From the sequence record NC_041871.1: DNA of 64,000 bases; one strand, written 5' to 3'. The DNA is from Escherichia phage Murica. Shown in pieces: positions 20,120-37,717 of this stretch (within the stretch, counting starts at the first letter, position 1; the number at the start of each line of letters is the position of its first letter). The position numbers and the translations under genes were made by a program. The notes beneath the pieces were generated by a model. It did no database searches. It was not told the origin of the DNA and saw only the letters and a list, made by a program, of their open reading frames with translations.

Positions 20120-20398
20120 ATGAGCTGTGAAAAATCTTTTTTCTTTATTATTTACGGTAAAGATAACTGCCCACATTGTGTAAGAGCAAAAGAATTTGCA
20201 GTCAGTAAAGGTCTGCCTTTTGTATATAAGACACTTGGCGAGGGTTACACAAAAGAAGAGCTTATTGAGAAGTGCAGTCCAATCGTACCCAGAACGTTGC
20301 CGCAGATCTTCTTAGAAAGCAATCTTGAAAGTGTCCATATAGGCGGTGCCGACGATTTCATCTCTTTTGTTAAGAATGGTTTTGGAGAGAAAAAGTGA
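20120..20398 (+). CDS. glutaredoxin-like redoxin
   Basis: 92 aa with CPHC active-site motif, between nrdB and nrdD. Confidence 0.8.
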   Translation: MSCEKSFFFIIYGKDNCPHCVRAKEFAVSKGLPFVYKTLGEGYTKEELIEKCSPIVPRTLPQIFLESNLESVHIGGADDFISFVKNGFGEKK

Positions 20399-22518
20399 AA
20401 GTTGTAAAACGGGACGGTAGAGAAGAGGTCTATAACGGAATTAAGGTGATCAAGGCGGCAGAGTCCGCCTTACTTGAGTCTGGACATACTGAAGAAGAAG
20501 CTTACCGGATCGCTTGTGCGGTTAATGAAGTTGTTGCTAACAATCTACCAACCGACCAGTGCACAATCTCTGTAAAAAATATCCATATCCTTGTTGAAGA
20601 TGCTCTTATGGATATGGGTTTAAAATGTGCAGCCAGAGAATACATCCAGTATAGACAGACAAGAGATAATAACAGAGAGGCAGGTGGAAAACTGCTTGCA
20701 GATATTAGTGGCTTCTTGGATCGAACTTGTGATGAATTTACAAAAGAAAACGCAAATAAGCCTACCAATCATGTACACACTCATCGTGACCTGCTTGCAG
20801 GCATCCTTAGCAAACACCTTGCATCAACACAGATCCTGCCAGACCGTGTCTCAGAAGAGCACAATAAAGGCTTCATCCATGTGCATGATCTTGACTACTT
20901 GATCAGTCCGTTAACAAACTGTTGTTTGGTAAATTATCCAGATATGTTGGAAAACGGATTCAACATTGGTAACGCCCATGTCAGTAAGCCGAAGTCAATA
21001 GGGGTTGCAACAACAATCCTTAGCCAAATCTCTAGTGCGGTAGCTAGTGCTCAATATGGGGGTCAGACTATGAGCCATATTGATCATTATCTGGCACAGT
21101 ATGCTGAGGCGACTTATGAGAAGAACCTTAAATTTTGCCAGGAACATTGGTTGCCAGATGCTGAGACTGTTGCAATGCAGATGACAGATAAAGACGTATT
21201 TGACAGCATGCAGACTTTACTCTATCAAATCAATACGTTAACTTCTGTCAACGGGCAAACCCCATTCATCACATTAAGTTTAGGTCTGGACACCTCAGTC
21301 TTTGGTAGAATGATTACCAAAAACTACTTGAAAGTCCACAAAATGGGTCTTGGTGAAGAACGTATCACACCTGTGTTCCCTAAAGTGTTGTTCTTCCTAG
21401 AAGAGGGTGTCAACATGAACCCTGGAGATCCTAACTATGATTTGAAACGATTAGCTCTGGAATGCTCTGCAGAGCGGATTTATCCTGACTTTGTTTCTGT
21501 TCCACTAAATCGTAAAGTGACAGGCTCGACAGATGGCAAAGTAACGAGCATGGGTTGCCGGAGTTTTCTTAGCAAATACAGTGACTTGGAAACAGGCGAG
21601 GAGAAATATCTTGGCAGATTTAACTTAGGCGTTGTTAGCCTTAACCTACCAATGATTGCGGCAAAAGCTAAGACGGAAGGTGTTGATTTCTTTGCAGTTC
21701 TTGACGAATACTTGGATCTTGCATACGAGGCTCACCTTGTAAGGGTTAACCGTCTAAAAGGAACAAAGGCAGGGCAGAACCCCATCATGTGGTGTGAAGG
21801 AGCTCTTGCTCGCCTGGATCCTGAAGAGAGTGTTGATAAACTCTTCTATGACGGGTACGCTTCCATCAGTATTGGGTATATTGGTGTGTATGAAACCTGT
21901 CAGATTTTGGGTAGAGAGGGTGACAAGGCTTTAGCTCTTGGAATCCTTCAGCACATGAGAGATGCTTGTGAGCGATACAAGAAGGAAAGTAGACTAGCGT
22001 TTAGCTTGTACGGCACTCCTTCTGAGAGTCTATGCTATAAAGCTGCAACCTGTCTGGATCGTGAATATCCGGAAGTGTTGAAGCACGAGCATGAATATCT
22101 CACCAACAGTTTCCATCAGCCAGTATGGATAAATAGCTCTCCTTTTGATAAGTGGGAGTATGAGGAAGGTTTTGCTATGATCTCCTCTGGTGGCAACATC
22201 GGATACGTAGAGACACCTAACCTGAAAAACAACTTGGATGCTTTAGAGGCTCTTGTTGACTTCGGGTATAAACACATTATGTATTTTGGTATTAACCAAC
22301 CTGTGGATAAATGTCTCAAGTGTGGTTTCTCTGGTGAGTTCAGTGCAACAGCTAAAGGGTTCTGCTGCCCTGCGTGCGGATGCCACGATGAACAATATAT
22401 CTCAGTGATCCGAAGAGTGTCTGGATATCTTTCCAGTCCTAACTCCCGTCCTTACAATAAAGGTAAGCAAGCGGAAGTTATCGAGCGAGTTAAGCACTAC
22501 GGAAGTTGTGGTTGCTGA
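20395..22518 (+). CDS. nrdD: anaerobic ribonucleotide reductase (class III)
   Basis: 707 aa; C-terminal glycyl-radical motif RRVSGY and CxxC zinc cluster. Confidence 0.95.
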   Translation: MKVVKRDGREEVYNGIKVIKAAESALLESGHTEEEAYRIACAVNEVVANNLPTDQCTISVKNIHILVEDALMDMGLKCAAREYIQYRQTRDNNREAGGKLLADISGFLDRTCDEFTKENANKPTNHVHTHRDLLAGILSKHLASTQILPDRVSEEHNKGFIHVHDLDYLISPLTNCCLVNYPDMLENGFNIGNAHVSKPKSIGVATTILSQISSAVASAQYGGQTMSHIDHYLAQYAEATYEKNLKFCQEHWLPDAETVAMQMTDKDVFDSMQTLLYQINTLTSVNGQTPFITLSLGLDTSVFGRMITKNYLKVHKMGLGEERITPVFPKVLFFLEEGVNMNPGDPNYDLKRLALECSAERIYPDFVSVPLNRKVTGSTDGKVTSMGCRSFLSKYSDLETGEEKYLGRFNLGVVSLNLPMIAAKAKTEGVDFFAVLDEYLDLAYEAHLVRVNRLKGTKAGQNPIMWCEGALARLDPEESVDKLFYDGYASISIGYIGVYETCQILGREGDKALALGILQHMRDACERYKKESRLAFSLYGTPSESLCYKAATCLDREYPEVLKHEHEYLTNSFHQPVWINSSPFDKWEYEEGFAMISSGGNIGYVETPNLKNNLDALEALVDFGYKHIMYFGINQPVDKCLKCGFSGEFSATAKGFCCPACGCHDEQYISVIRRVSGYLSSPNSRPYNKGKQAEVIERVKHYGSCGC

Positions 22519-23693: not shown

Positions 23694-23731
23694 AAGTACT
23701 TGGCACATCTCAATCTGAAAGGAGTCCCAAC

Positions 23732-24520
23732 ATGGGTCGAGCTAAAGAAACAAAACGCATGCGTGATGAAGCTAGAGAGGCTCGCAAATCTGATCGCCTG
23801 CGTAAGGCTGCTGAGAAATTTGCTGACGAAAGAGAGCACACCGCTCCAGCTCTCCGACCAATGAATAAGAAGCAGCAAAAGTATCTTGATTATCTAGGGT
23901 CACGTAAGATTATTATTGTAAACGGTGTGTTTGGATCCGGTAAGACATTCATGGCATCTGCATATGCAGGTGATCTTCTGCGTAAGAACGAGATTGATAA
24001 GATTATTGTTGCACGTCCTTACGTTCAGACAGGAAAGACTTCAGGATTTAAACCTGGAAATGCAATGCAGAAACTGTGGCCCTATCTTCGAAGCATGATG
24101 GACACGATTTGTCGTCGTGTTGGCAAAGGTGCTTTTGCCGCAATGCTGGGAGACGGTCAGAACAGCCGTATCGAGATTTGTGAAGTTGAAAGCATTCGTG
24201 GTCGTAGTTTCGATGAGCGATGCTTTGTCCTGATTGACGAGGCACAGCAAACTAACCCTGAAGAAATGTTGTCAATTATCACAAGGATCTCTGATCAAGC
24301 CACCCTTGTAATTATGGGTGATAATAGCCAACGTGACATCCCTGGTAAATCTGGCCTTGCATGGGTGACGGATTTCTTTACTCGTCATCCAGATCCTGAG
24401 GTTGGAATGATCAGCTTTGATAGTCCAGACGATGTCGTTCGTTCCGGGTTGGGTCGTCAGATCGCACTCAATCTTATTGATGATCGTGCAAATCATATTT
24501 GGACCCCTGTTTCCGAGTAA
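23732..24520 (+). CDS. phoH: PhoH-like ATPase
   Basis: Walker A GVFGSGKT and Walker B-like VLIDEAQ in PhoH arrangement. Confidence 0.85.
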   Translation: MGRAKETKRMRDEAREARKSDRLRKAAEKFADEREHTAPALRPMNKKQQKYLDYLGSRKIIIVNGVFGSGKTFMASAYAGDLLRKNEIDKIIVARPYVQTGKTSGFKPGNAMQKLWPYLRSMMDTICRRVGKGAFAAMLGDGQNSRIEICEVESIRGRSFDERCFVLIDEAQQTNPEEMLSIITRISDQATLVIMGDNSQRDIPGKSGLAWVTDFFTRHPDPEVGMISFDSPDDVVRSGLGRQIALNLIDDRANHIWTPVSE

Positions 24521-24564
24521 TACAGAAGGGTGGTTATTCCACCCTTAAATATCTAAAACAGTTG

Positions 24565-24593
24565 TTGACAAATAGGTAAGCTTTAGATATTAT
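24565..24593 (+). promoter_or_regulatory. sigma70-type promoter TTGACA-17-TATTAT
   Basis: Consensus hexamers; flanks resemble the promoter at 23172. Confidence 0.65.
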
Positions 24594-24621
24594 TATCGGA
24601 CAAAACAGAGAGAAGGACAGT

Positions 24622-24933
24622 ATGGCTACAATACAAGAGAAACTGAATAAAATATACTGCCTGTTTGTCTATAACGGCGAGACAATTTTGGCAAATAAGG
24701 GATCCAAGAATGTGTGGACCAAGGACAGCGGTGGTAATATAATTAACTTAGCGTTGCTACGTGAGCGCCGACACAGATTCTTTATCGAGTCTAGAATTAT
24801 TGAAAGCAGCACTTGCTACAGAACAGGCGATAAAGTAATTGTTGACAATGATACGTGGTATGTGGTAGACTGGCAATCATTGAGTTGTGATGCTTCTGAC
24901 AATCGTAAGTATTCCATAGTGATTGCTAAATAA
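24622..24933 (+). CDS. hypothetical protein
   Basis: 103-aa ORF downstream of a consensus promoter. Confidence 0.45.
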   Translation: MATIQEKLNKIYCLFVYNGETILANKGSKNVWTKDSGGNIINLALLRERRHRFFIESRIIESSTCYRTGDKVIVDNDTWYVVDWQSLSCDASDNRKYSIVIAK

Positions 24934-24993
24934 AGGTAAATGTGAATCAGGTTTAAATAAATAGCTTTCAACTTCCAATATTAAGGATTTCTC

Positions 24994-26043
24994 ATGAATT
25001 TAACACCTCGCAGAACCATGGTACACGGCATGAAAGAAAAACAGAACGGTTTCGAACCTATGAGTAATAAAATGTTTGGTATGCCGGGCGGTATCATGGA
25101 AACATACAGCTACCCAACACCTGTTGTTGACCACGTTCTTTATATCGACGATTTGGAAGACTTACAAGATCATATGTCTCGCCTGCAGACGATCCGTATG
25201 GCTCAGCCTGAAGAAAGCATTCGAGTGATCATTAACAGCCCTGGTGGTTGCGTGCACATTGCGATGGCTTATCTGCAGGCATTCCGCGAGTCTCAGGCAA
25301 GCGTTGTTGCACATGCTGAAGGAATGTGCTGCTCTGCGGGAACAATCTTATGGCTGGGTTGCAAAGAACGCACTGTGGCTCCGGACACAGAGTTTATGTT
25401 CCACTACTATCAAGGTGGCACTTATGGTAACGGTGTGAACATGAATACTCAGGTCAGCTACTGGAAAAAACGTTTTGAACGCCTGATTGAAAAATACTAC
25501 GGTGGGGTGCTGACAGAAGATGAGATCGCATCCATCACAGCTGGTGGCGAAGTGTGGTTGGACGGAGAAGAGCTGGCAGCACGCACTGGAGCTATTATTC
25601 TGGATGAAGGCAACATACAACGCATCCAGAACGGACAAAAACCGAAAAAGCTTCTGGCAAAAGGTGATGAAGAAGGCGTGTTAGGTGAAGCAGGTCTCCC
25701 GGAGATTCACCAGTGCACATCTTTAGATGAGTTAGTTCATGCTGTTGAATCTGCAAAAGCGGGTGGTTCGAAAGGTGATGTTCACACTGTGTTCCTGAAT
25801 CTGCAGATGGAAAGTGGCGAGACCGTCAGAATTGCCCTGGGTGAGATTACTTCAGAAGATCTGCAGAGATTCTCTGTCGTTGAACTTCAGGATATTCTGT
25901 CTCAATTGAAGACTACTCTGAACGGCGGTGAAGAGGTTAAGGTGAAAGATAAGACTCGCAAGCGTCTGGTGGACAATATTATTAAAACAGCAAAAGAGCT
26001 CAATGAAAAAATCCTGGGTGCAGGAATTGTCGAAGAAGCTTAA
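24994..26043 (+). CDS. ClpP/S14-like serine peptidase homolog with long C-terminal extension
   Basis: INSPGGCVHIAMA and GMCCSAGTIL resemble ClpP oxyanion and catalytic Ser motifs; 349 aa with about 150 extra C-terminal residues. Confidence 0.5.
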   Translation: MNLTPRRTMVHGMKEKQNGFEPMSNKMFGMPGGIMETYSYPTPVVDHVLYIDDLEDLQDHMSRLQTIRMAQPEESIRVIINSPGGCVHIAMAYLQAFRESQASVVAHAEGMCCSAGTILWLGCKERTVAPDTEFMFHYYQGGTYGNGVNMNTQVSYWKKRFERLIEKYYGGVLTEDEIASITAGGEVWLDGEELAARTGAIILDEGNIQRIQNGQKPKKLLAKGDEEGVLGEAGLPEIHQCTSLDELVHAVESAKAGGSKGDVHTVFLNLQMESGETVRIALGEITSEDLQRFSVVELQDILSQLKTTLNGGEEVKVKDKTRKRLVDNIIKTAKELNEKILGAGIVEEA

Positions 26044-26054
26044 ACATTAATTCT

Positions 26055-26080
26055 AAAGCCCTCTTCGGAGGGCTTTTATG
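26055..26080 (+). terminator. intrinsic terminator
   Basis: AAAGCCCTC-ttcg-GAGGGCTTT followed by TAT. Confidence 0.7.
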
Positions 26081-26094
26081 ATCTGGAGATTTGC

Positions 26095-26628
26095 ATGACT
26101 TGTGCTAGAAAACCTGATGAACAACGTAACGCCTACGATGAGTATGTGACACCGGAGTGGTGTGCAGAAGGGCTGTATGACCTTATTCAGTTCCCAGAAG
26201 ACTGGACCTACTTAGAGCCTTGCAGGAATAGTGCCTCAGGTGTGTTCTACTCCCGTATGCCGTTAGGATCTGCATGGGGAGAAATACAAGAAGGTGTTGA
26301 CTATCTGAATACAGAATACAACCATGTTGACTGTATTATCACCAACCCACCATACAGCCTGGCTCGTGAGTTTGTAGACAAGGCGTTGAAAGATGCTGAC
26401 GTAGTTATTATGCTTTTGCGTCTTAATTTTCTGGAAAGCAAAGCCAGATTTGAATGGTGGCTTGATAATGCACCTACTACTGTGATCACAATATCTAAGC
26501 GTCCATCATTTCAATCAAACGGCAGAACTGACGGGCAAGCATATGCATATTTTGTGTGGGATAAGAAAAACCGTTTAGACTTGCCGCCGTTTATGTGGTT
26601 GGCACCCCCAGAGGTAGACCTGAAATGA
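26095..26628 (+). CDS. small DNA N6-adenine methyltransferase (Dam-like phage type)
   Basis: YVTPEW, EPCRNSASGVF and catalytic ITNPPYS (NPPY) in a 177-aa protein. Confidence 0.7.
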   Translation: MTCARKPDEQRNAYDEYVTPEWCAEGLYDLIQFPEDWTYLEPCRNSASGVFYSRMPLGSAWGEIQEGVDYLNTEYNHVDCIITNPPYSLAREFVDKALKDADVVIMLLRLNFLESKARFEWWLDNAPTTVITISKRPSFQSNGRTDGQAYAYFVWDKKNRLDLPPFMWLAPPEVDLK

Positions 26629-26909
26629 AAATGAGTGCTAAGGACAAATTACACCATCTAGCGCTAAAACGCCCTGTAACGCTCCCTGACGAACTTAACT
26701 CCATTTATGATGCGATTGTAGGGGAGATACAAAATAAAGCGTTAGCAGGCTTTCTGGGGTGCGGATTTTCGATAAATCTACCCTCGCATCTCTCAGATTA
26801 CTTCCCGCACATTGTTGGAGATTTAAGGGCAGGAGGTCTGCAGGTAGATGTTGTTGGCATCTCCCCAGAGAAAAATAATACGGTTGCCTACTTGACAGTA
26901 ACCTGGTAG
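26625..26909 (+). CDS. hypothetical protein
   Basis: ATG 26625 overlapping the methyltransferase stop. Confidence 0.35.
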   Translation: MKMSAKDKLHHLALKRPVTLPDELNSIYDAIVGEIQNKALAGFLGCGFSINLPSHLSDYFPHIVGDLRAGGLQVDVVGISPEKNNTVAYLTVTW

Positions 26910-26945
26910 TTGTGTATTGTTGTTTTCAACAAGAGGGGGTCATTT

Positions 26946-27185
26946 ATGTACAAGTCATTTTCAATCTACTCAAGACAGGCGAAACACTACACAGAGATCC
27001 TGATCACTCAGAAAAAATCTGTGGAAGGTGAGTGGGAATATCACCATAAAATGTTGCGTCCAGACTGGGTTTTTGATAGACTTATTGCTATGATCCCTCT
27101 CGGAGAAGTATACCCTCTGACAGCCCATCGCGATGCTTGGGATTTAATTGATTACATAGATTCATTTAAGGAGCCTAGATTATGA
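26946..27185 (+). CDS. hypothetical protein
   Basis: ATG 26946 after a GGGGG-containing RBS. Confidence 0.35.
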   Translation: MYKSFSIYSRQAKHYTEILITQKKSVEGEWEYHHKMLRPDWVFDRLIAMIPLGEVYPLTAHRDAWDLIDYIDSFKEPRL

Positions 27186-27580
27186 AGATTGAGATTACTA
27201 AAGAAGGTAAGAAAGTGTCCGGCAACTATGCAACAGTAATTCGGGATTTAATGTTTGAAGCCACCAAGATCGGTACATCTAAAGTTGGTCAAACTGTTAG
27301 TGTGAAAAGTAATATCTCCACAGGAGAGAAGGTATTCATTGTGGTCAAAGGGCAGGATCCCGTGGAAGGAACAGTGGGCCGAGGTGGCTACCTGTGCATT
27401 TCTGAAGAGCCGCGTATGTTAGTGGCTGACGCTACTATGGGTGGGAAACGTGTGTGCGAGGCGGATGAGGTAATGATTATCCAACCTGTTGATCCAGATG
27501 ACCCAGCAACTTGGGTGGTAGGAAATGAAATCTTCTCTTTAGAAGAGTTATCCTTCCCAGCACCGCGCTCTGTTCAGTAA
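27182..27580 (+). CDS. small acidic protein, MK-I/V-E/K paralog family (probable)
   Basis: N-terminus MKIEIT; ATGA overlap with upstream gene. Confidence 0.4.
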   Translation: MKIEITKEGKKVSGNYATVIRDLMFEATKIGTSKVGQTVSVKSNISTGEKVFIVVKGQDPVEGTVGRGGYLCISEEPRMLVADATMGGKRVCEADEVMIIQPVDPDDPATWVVGNEIFSLEELSFPAPRSVQ

Positions 27581-37566: not shown

Positions 37567-37595
37567 TTGACACATTACCGCTCCCGTGATAGTAT
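37567..37595 (+). promoter_or_regulatory. sigma70-type promoter TTGACA-17-TAGTAT
   Basis: Consensus -35 with 17-nt spacer upstream of the small ORF at 37616. Confidence 0.55.
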
Positions 37596-37615
37596 CCACA
37601 CACAGTTTGGAGAAT

Positions 37616-37717
37616 ATGGAATACACAATGAGAACATTGTCTGAAGTTTTAGTGGTGATCCTGATGATCATTACTTCCATAGCGGCTGTTGCCGGAATAC
37701 TCACGGGTGGAACATGA
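37616..37717 (+). CDS. small hydrophobic peptide (about 30 aa)
   Basis: Single TM-like segment LVVILMIITSIAAVAGIL; stop overlaps ATG of ORF 37714; start ambiguous (37616 or 37628). Confidence 0.3.
   Translation: MEYTMRTLSEVLVVILMIITSIAAVAGILTGGT

Follow-up and report, generated by a model that had tools for sequence, protein, structure and literature searches.

A predicted ClpP-fold peptidase encoded in the replication region of an rV5-like Escherichia phage is probably not the capsid-maturation protease

Introduction

Many large virulent phages carry ClpP-like genes outside their head modules; among them are candidates for therapy such as rV5-like phages, Pakpunavirus and ICP1. These genes are routinely named 'ATP-dependent Clp protease subunit'. 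The encoded enzymes could act in host takeover, in the turnover of early phage proteins or in counter-defence. The closest described example is gp122 of phage rV5, a protein of 349 amino acids (aa) that was listed as 'ClpP (ATP-dependent) protease subunit' in Table S3 of Kropinski et al. (2013; PMC3606486). Here we analyze its counterpart in Escherichia phage Murica (NC_041871.1), in a 64,000-nucleotide (nt) stretch of DNA that is referred to as the window, where the ClpP-like open reading frame (ORF) lies on the plus strand (Table 1).

By sequence search, the window phage is an rV5-like Vequintavirus. Bases 23700-27200 of the window shared 99.3% identity with Escherichia phage slur16, and with many relatives too, and the whole window mapped to 98.4-136.9 kb plus 0-26.6 kb of slur16. 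The protease ORF starts with ATG and is preceded by an AAGGA Shine-Dalgarno-like motif. Its product was 99.7% identical to slur16 gp160 ('ATP-dependent protease'). Moreover, aa 24-345 aligned with profile positions 4-322 of 323 in phrog_5410 (E = 4.9e-155), which represents the Vequintavirinae long form and is also named 'ATP-dependent protease'. This full-length match rules out a chance feature, and the gene is real. It is the same gene as rV5 gp122, slur16 gp160 and the Vequintavirinae orthologues, with which it shares its length, neighbours, promoter and terminator; there was no material difference from rV5 gp122 or slur16 gp160, whose published records give a homology-based name alone. An earlier note on this DNA had treated the gene as a find. 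The gene was correctly recognized, but its annotation has been public since 2013 (PMC3606486), and nothing is added here to the deposited record. The literature on rV5, phi92, LL12, ICP1, phage-encoded ClpP, anti-defence, CRISPRi-ART and phage transposon sequencing yielded no function or essentiality data for this gene, and no structure or domain analysis was found in the published records of the rV5 gp122 family.

In bacterial ClpP, pore gating and the contact with ClpX or ClpA are provided by the N-terminal axial loop and helix A, and the C-terminus exits on the apical face, which is the site of unfoldase docking. The ClpP-related head maturation proteases of phages (NF045542; phrog_94, phrog_1684, phrog_133) belong to the same fold family, and their genes are found between the terminase or portal gene and the gene of the major capsid protein (MCP). 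Short ClpP-like proteases (phrog_1827) are encoded by Pakpunavirus, Flaumdravirus KIL1, Barbavirus and the T5-like phage My1. The window protein shares a homologous domain with them (E = 3e-40 to phrog_1827), whereas most of the short proteins have only 180-250 aa and lack its C-terminal domain. In the short proteases and in the long ICP1 protein, Ser and His are conserved with Asp, Glu or Gln as the third residue, and the genes belong to replication, nucleotide-metabolism or early regions, often with PhoH just ahead of them.

On the comparisons reported below, which draw on sequence and on structural models, we favour with modest confidence the reading that the window gene encodes an active, non-structural peptidase other than the head protease. 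Any specific target is proposed with much less confidence.

Results

Predicted domains and catalytic residues

An AlphaFold2 monomer model was built on 72 homologues (mean predicted local distance difference test score, pLDDT, 84). The model splits the protein into four parts, aa 1-44, 45-215, 216-243 and 244-345, whose coordinates are given in Table 1 together with those of the neighbouring features. The second part is modelled as a ClpP alpha/beta fold that includes the long handle helix (aa 147-169) and a conserved Gly-rich loop, YYQGGTYGNG. When this domain was compared with the Protein Data Bank (PDB) by Foldseek, ClpP chains only were retrieved, with template modelling (TM) scores of 0.66-0.74 over 155-174 aligned columns, the handle helix included. 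Pfam CLP_protease (PF00574) matched aa 59-168 with 47.7 bits against a gathering score of 20.2, which places the protein in the superfamily. The ClpP-like motifs that the earlier note had reported in the N-terminal part were thus recovered by both the profile and the model.

Table 1. Positions of the protease gene, its predicted domains and catalytic codons, and neighbouring features in the window.
Feature	Position	Strand	Remarks
ClpP-like protease gene	24994..26043	+	349 aa; rV5 gp122 / slur16 gp160 family; phrog_5410
N-terminal region, aa 1-44	24994..25125	+	pLDDT ~50, predicted disordered; first ~20 aa variable; conserved FG..PG....YSYP motif
Predicted ClpP-fold peptidase domain, aa 45-215	25126..25638	+	pLDDT >90; Foldseek; alignments
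Ser114 codon, predicted nucleophile (CCSAG)	25333..25335	+	invariant; aligned to ClpP catalytic Ser
His137 codon, predicted general base (MFHYY)	25402..25404	+	invariant; aligned to ClpP catalytic His
Glu186 codon (GGEVW)	25549..25551	+	aligned to ClpP catalytic Asp position; Asp or Glu in most lineages
Predicted flexible linker, aa 216-243 (~28 aa)	25639..25722	+	pLDDT 48-53; length and sequence vary in the alignment; poorly conserved
Family-specific C-terminal domain, aa 244-345	25723..26028	+	models and conservation
PhoH-like ATPase gene	23732..24520	+	gp120; conserved 5' neighbour
Sigma70-type promoter, TTGACA-N17-TATTAT	24565..24593	+	scan; 11/12 consensus positions; corresponds to published rV5 P121
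Small ORF, rV5 gp121	24622..24933	+	103 aa; phrog_5456 (function unknown); within the same promoter-terminator unit as the protease
Intrinsic terminator, GCCCTC-TTCG-GAGGGC then TTTTAT, GCCCTCTTCGGAGGGCTTTTAT	26058..26079	+	15 nt past the stop codon; corresponds to published rV5 t122
DNA methyltransferase-like gene	26095..26628	+	conserved 3' neighbour; context

Ser114 and His137 were invariant in the 72-sequence alignment, down to 17% identity. The third triad position was Asp in ICP1, the T5-like My1 and the sampled environmental relatives, Glu in the window protein, phiTE, Pakpunavirus and KIL1, and Gln in Barbavirus and several Vequintavirinae genera. The loss of a catalytic Ser, His or Asp, which the earlier note had named as evidence that would speak against a protease, was therefore not seen for Ser and His in the alignment to solved ClpPs, and the third position carries a conservative Glu. 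A catalytically dead ClpP-fold protein, serving as a binding or assembly scaffold, would fit the Gln that many relatives carry at this position. We consider it very improbable in view of the invariant Ser and His, the Glu of the window protein itself, and the conservation of the oxyanion and Gly-rich motifs.

Genomic context and the question of head maturation

In the complete slur16 genome, the head module occupies 85-94 kb on the opposite strand. Its genes encode the terminase, the portal (Portal_Mu), two proteins of 139 aa and 325 aa, of which the longer one is acidic, a decoration protein and an MCP of the lambda-E type. There were no head genes within the window. The 139-aa protein, which sits in the usual protease slot, matched Pfam Peptidase_S78_2/XkdF (E = 9e-18) and phrog_3017 'head maturation protease' (E = 7e-14), and the distance between this XkdF-type candidate and the ClpP-like gene in slur16 was 33.8 kb. 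In rV5, the late promoters have a motif unlike the sigma70-type promoter P121 that precedes the gene, and mass spectrometry of virions detected 19 proteins, among which gp122 was not found (PMC3606486).

The homologues in ICP1, phiTE, Pakpunavirus, KIL1, Barbavirus and the T5-like My1 were all located among genes for PhoH, ribonucleotide reductase (RNR), ligase, deoxycytidine monophosphate deaminase or deoxynucleoside monophosphate kinase. In the IMG/VR sample, ClpP-like phage proteases fell into two context classes. The prohead class is exemplified by the loci L027 (terminase-protease-portal) and L071 (portal, protease/scaffold fusion, MCP), and the replication-module class by L052 (primase-protease-DnaB) and L085 (RNR-PhoH-...-protease). 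The window gene belongs to the replication-module class.

These data were weighed against a head-maturation protease or scaffold that is encoded away from the head module and uses its C-terminal domain as a capsid-targeting or scaffolding element. In favour of such a protein, the best curated match was NF045542 (head maturation protease, ClpP-related), and several 'head maturation protease' PHROGs matched, with phrog_1684 reaching residue 256. ClpP-type prohead proteases with C-terminal scaffold extensions do exist, for instance the 527-aa protein of L071, and the XkdF-type protein of the head module is short. However, the score against NF045542 was 60.4 bits, half the cut-off of 120, compared with 110.6 bits for the head-module protease of L027. 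The gene is also remote from the head module and on the other strand; its promoter is of the sigma70 type and not of the late type; the protein is absent from the virion list; the slot where head maturation proteases are usually encoded already holds a candidate; and all sampled homologues in large virulent phages lie in replication or early regions. We therefore regard a displaced head protease as unlikely, and the window ClpP-like protein is probably not the capsid-maturation protease. The earlier note had argued against a prohead role from the gene's own terminator and its distance to any head-morphogenesis genes, and had looked to the complete genome for a structural module around the gene as counter-evidence; the argument holds in slur16, in which the gene is not part of such a module.

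Two observations concern the annotation of virion and head genes outside the locus. The 139-aa XkdF-type protein is slur16 gp118 / rV5 gp63 (L003:39947-40366, minus strand), encoded between the portal and the scaffold-like gene and outside the window; its RefSeq name 'DNA methyltransferase' is probably a misannotation inherited from phrog_1530. About 4 kb 3' of the protease gene, the early-region gene of slur16 gp150 (L001:29230-29694) is named 'virion structural protein'. The text of the 2013 paper counts rV5 gp133 among the predominant virion proteins (PMC3606486). The two proteins were equated by gene order and size only, and the mass spectrometric support consists of two weak peptides, one of which is the 5-residue LLLIL. 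The virion status of slur16 gp150 / rV5 gp133 looks doubtful.

Relation to bacterial ClpP

The protein resembles bacterial ClpP (E. coli ClpP; MEROPS S14) in the fold including the handle helix (TM score ~0.74), in the register of Ser and His, and in having an acidic third residue. It differs in the Glu that replaces Asp, in the linker and C-terminal domain of ~100 aa, and in the N-terminus. Neither the axial loop nor helix A of ClpP had a counterpart in the AlphaFold2 model and the alignments, in which the first secondary-structure element was the strand 46-51. The stretch aligned to helix A holds two prolines, and the short homologues have only ~10 residues ahead of the first strand. The protease domain was ~20% identical to ClpPs, and the TIGR00493 ClpP equivalog model scored 33.2 bits against an NCBI cut-off of 308.6. 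Because of this wide miss of the curated ClpP model and the absence of the N-terminal elements for ATPase coupling, the ClpP label is unjustified for the rV5 gp122 family, and 'ATP-dependent' is a transferred name alone.

A canonical ClpP subunit would redirect the ATP-dependent proteolysis of the host, either as a proteolytic core that docks the host's ClpX or ClpA or by joining its ClpP rings. The ClpP fold with its handle region, the Pfam CLP_protease score and the catalytic Ser and His with an acidic third residue are all in keeping with such a subunit. But the TIGR00493 score, the low identity and the missing axial loop and helix A are not, and a bulky C-terminal domain would occupy the face on which unfoldases dock. 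In addition, the V5-like phage LL12 showed no requirement for clpX, clpA, clpP or lon when it was screened on the Keio collection (PMC7229145). The screen is compatible with a non-canonical protein but carries little weight, since the phage may be able to do without its own protease gene under laboratory conditions. Taken together, we judge a canonical subunit quite unlikely.

The C-terminal domain

The C-terminal domain is modelled as a helix, a beta-hairpin, a short helix and a helix-loop-helix, with pLDDT values of 85-98 over most of its length, and the same secondary structure was obtained when the C-terminal part was modelled separately. About 100 long-form proteins of 300-380 aa, nearly all of them encoded on contigs of 120-150 kb, share the domain, with a conserved block of F293, E297, L298, R322 and L325 that follows the variable linker. 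The extension of the ICP1 protein (326 aa) had no detectable similarity to that of the window protein.

No Pfam match was obtained for the domain. Structure comparison brought up no convincing relative, a sequence-profile search of the PDB gave none either (best E = 0.018), and the search of 1.84 billion representative proteins returned family members only. The resemblance to helix-extension-helix domains of the SAP/HeH/Rho_N type was not significant, as Pfam HeH matched 1 of 25 members with E = 0.08 and the SAP protein 2rno gave E = 0.17. Judged by these searches, the domain appears to be restricted to the rV5-like long-form family. Two proteins, P0121 and P0122, were rejected as relatives, since they are long low-complexity repeat ORFs whose scores were inflated by repeats. 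An internal start that would yield a separate scaffold-like product, as in lambda C/Nu3, was likewise rejected: the only nearby in-frame Met, M271, is unconserved outside the rV5 clade.

The extension had been described as an acidic C-terminal half of about 150 residues without a ClpP counterpart. It is present, with a length of about 135-145 aa (216-349), and neither a ClpP counterpart nor a Pfam family was found for it. However, it is not a uniform half, since a predicted disordered linker leads to a folded domain of ~100 aa. The extension is also only mildly acidic (isoelectric point 5.3, net charge -5), and the protease domain is the more acidic of the two (isoelectric point 4.7, net charge -12).

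Proposed role of the peptidase

Several points weigh against an active peptidase that is distinct from the head protease. Many close relatives have Gln at the third triad position, so that the chemistry may differ within the family. By sequence, cellular ClpP is more distant from the protease domain than the head-maturation proteases of phages are. The XkdF-type head protein is itself only a predicted protease, for which no solved structural relative was found. The promoter class is a motif prediction, and the virion mass spectrometry dataset was shallow, with several of the 19 proteins identified on only two weak peptides each.

In the reading that we favour, an active non-head peptidase, the protein would be made together with gp121 from a host-type (sigma70) promoter within the replication/nucleotide-metabolism block. 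The conserved handle helix and the YYQGGTYGNG loop are compatible with ClpP-like rings, which would enclose the active sites. A canonical mode of action dependent on ClpX/ClpA seems improbable because the gating and docking N-terminus of ClpP is absent, and the enzyme may instead work independently of ATP or with another partner. Since the C-terminus of ClpP exits on the apical face, each ring would have seven tethered C-terminal domains around its axial pore, where an unfoldase usually sits. These domains would most likely be a module that recruits substrates or partners, and they could hinder the docking of host ClpX/ClpA. A likely job for such an enzyme would be to degrade particular proteins of the host, or early proteins of the phage, selectively in the course of infection; the host-directed or regulatory role put forward in the earlier note is a candidate role.

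Transcription unit and neighbouring genes

The protease gene and the small ORF ahead of it are predicted to form a two-gene unit with its own promoter and terminator. Both elements were published for rV5 in Table S4 of the 2013 paper (PMC3606486), and the terminator claimed for the gene in the earlier note is the same hairpin. A gp121 homologue was found directly 5' of the protease in 14 of the 16 long-form IMG/VR loci, and gp121 had weak similarity to phiTE_142. It is a candidate adaptor, partner, inhibitor or substrate of the protease. On the 3' side, the methyltransferase gene followed the protease in 15 of these loci and in phiTE, and Barbavirus has the same order. Further neighbours in the window are PhoH and the anaerobic RNR.

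A further hairpin, GGGTGG-TTATT-CCACCC, was observed at 24528-24544, just after the PhoH stop codon and ahead of P121. It has a weak T tract and is missing from the published rV5 terminator list. This hairpin may partly insulate phoH from the gp121-protease unit.

Linkage to PhoH

A PhoH-like gene was located 5' of the protease on the same strand in the window and in all 16 Vequintavirinae-like IMG/VR loci (0.4-2.0 kb). PhoH directly adjoins the protease in Barbavirus and in Flaumdravirus KIL1, where the annotated ORFs overlap, and the distance was 0.9 kb in ICP1 and 3.4 kb in phiTE. The order was also present in 12 of 64 distant environmental loci (loci with PhoH 5' of the protease: L004, L006, L008-L025, L047, L056, L065-L070, L084-L087), and it occurs in Alteromonas phage V22 as CDS-146 and CDS-147 (PMC7289586). 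PhoH was never 3' of the protease or on the opposite strand, and the linkage appeared in two separate clusters of the family tree. It was absent in Pakpunavirus, the T5-like My1 and the jumbo phage BONAISHI. No comment on the PhoH-protease linkage was found in the literature searched.

The recurrence of PhoH 5' of the protease on the same strand across unrelated lineages raises the idea of a PhoH-coupled protease, in which the peptidase and the PhoH-like P-loop ATPase would make up a phage-specific module for ATP-dependent degradation or for RNA/protein remodelling, with gp121 perhaps included. We hold this to be rather unlikely. The evidence is synteny alone, and the linkage counts come without a background rate. 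The hairpin and the separate promoter between phoH and the gp121-protease unit mean that co-transcription is not obligatory, and the linkage is missing in the three lineages named above. Both genes often occur in the nucleotide-metabolism modules that large virulent phages carry, and shared module ancestry could explain much of the pattern. PhoH-family proteins are not known as unfoldases.

As a tentative proposal of low likelihood, the PhoH-like ATPase and the ClpP-like peptidase could be a conserved functional pair whose specificity would be set by gp121 and the C-terminal domain. If true, the pair would provide the first concrete biochemical partner for the widespread phage PhoH of unknown function. 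The linkage is inexpensive to test and bears on two families of phage genes that are poorly understood.

Observations on the genome records

Comparison with slur16 and other database records brought up differences that lie outside the protease locus or concern the records themselves. In the window, nrdD (20395-22518) is a single ORF of 707 aa. The slur16 copy is split by an insertion of ~797 bp with an HNH endonuclease (slur16 119642-120438), which corresponds to the point 21254/21255 of the window. The two near-identical phages appear to differ here by a mobile intron or a homing-endonuclease polymorphism.

Window positions 37582-37707 (126 nt) matched the linear slur16 record twice, at its first and at its last bases. 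The arbitrary ends of that record thus lie within the window, and the record carries a short duplicated overlap.

Finally, nineteen unannotated GenBank records of 'Campylobacter phage' (e.g., MG065635 and MG065653) were 98.6-99.3% identical to window 23700-27200 among the matches listed, and most of them give Campylobacter jejuni as the host. This suggests mislabelled hosts or contaminating coliphages in the submission.

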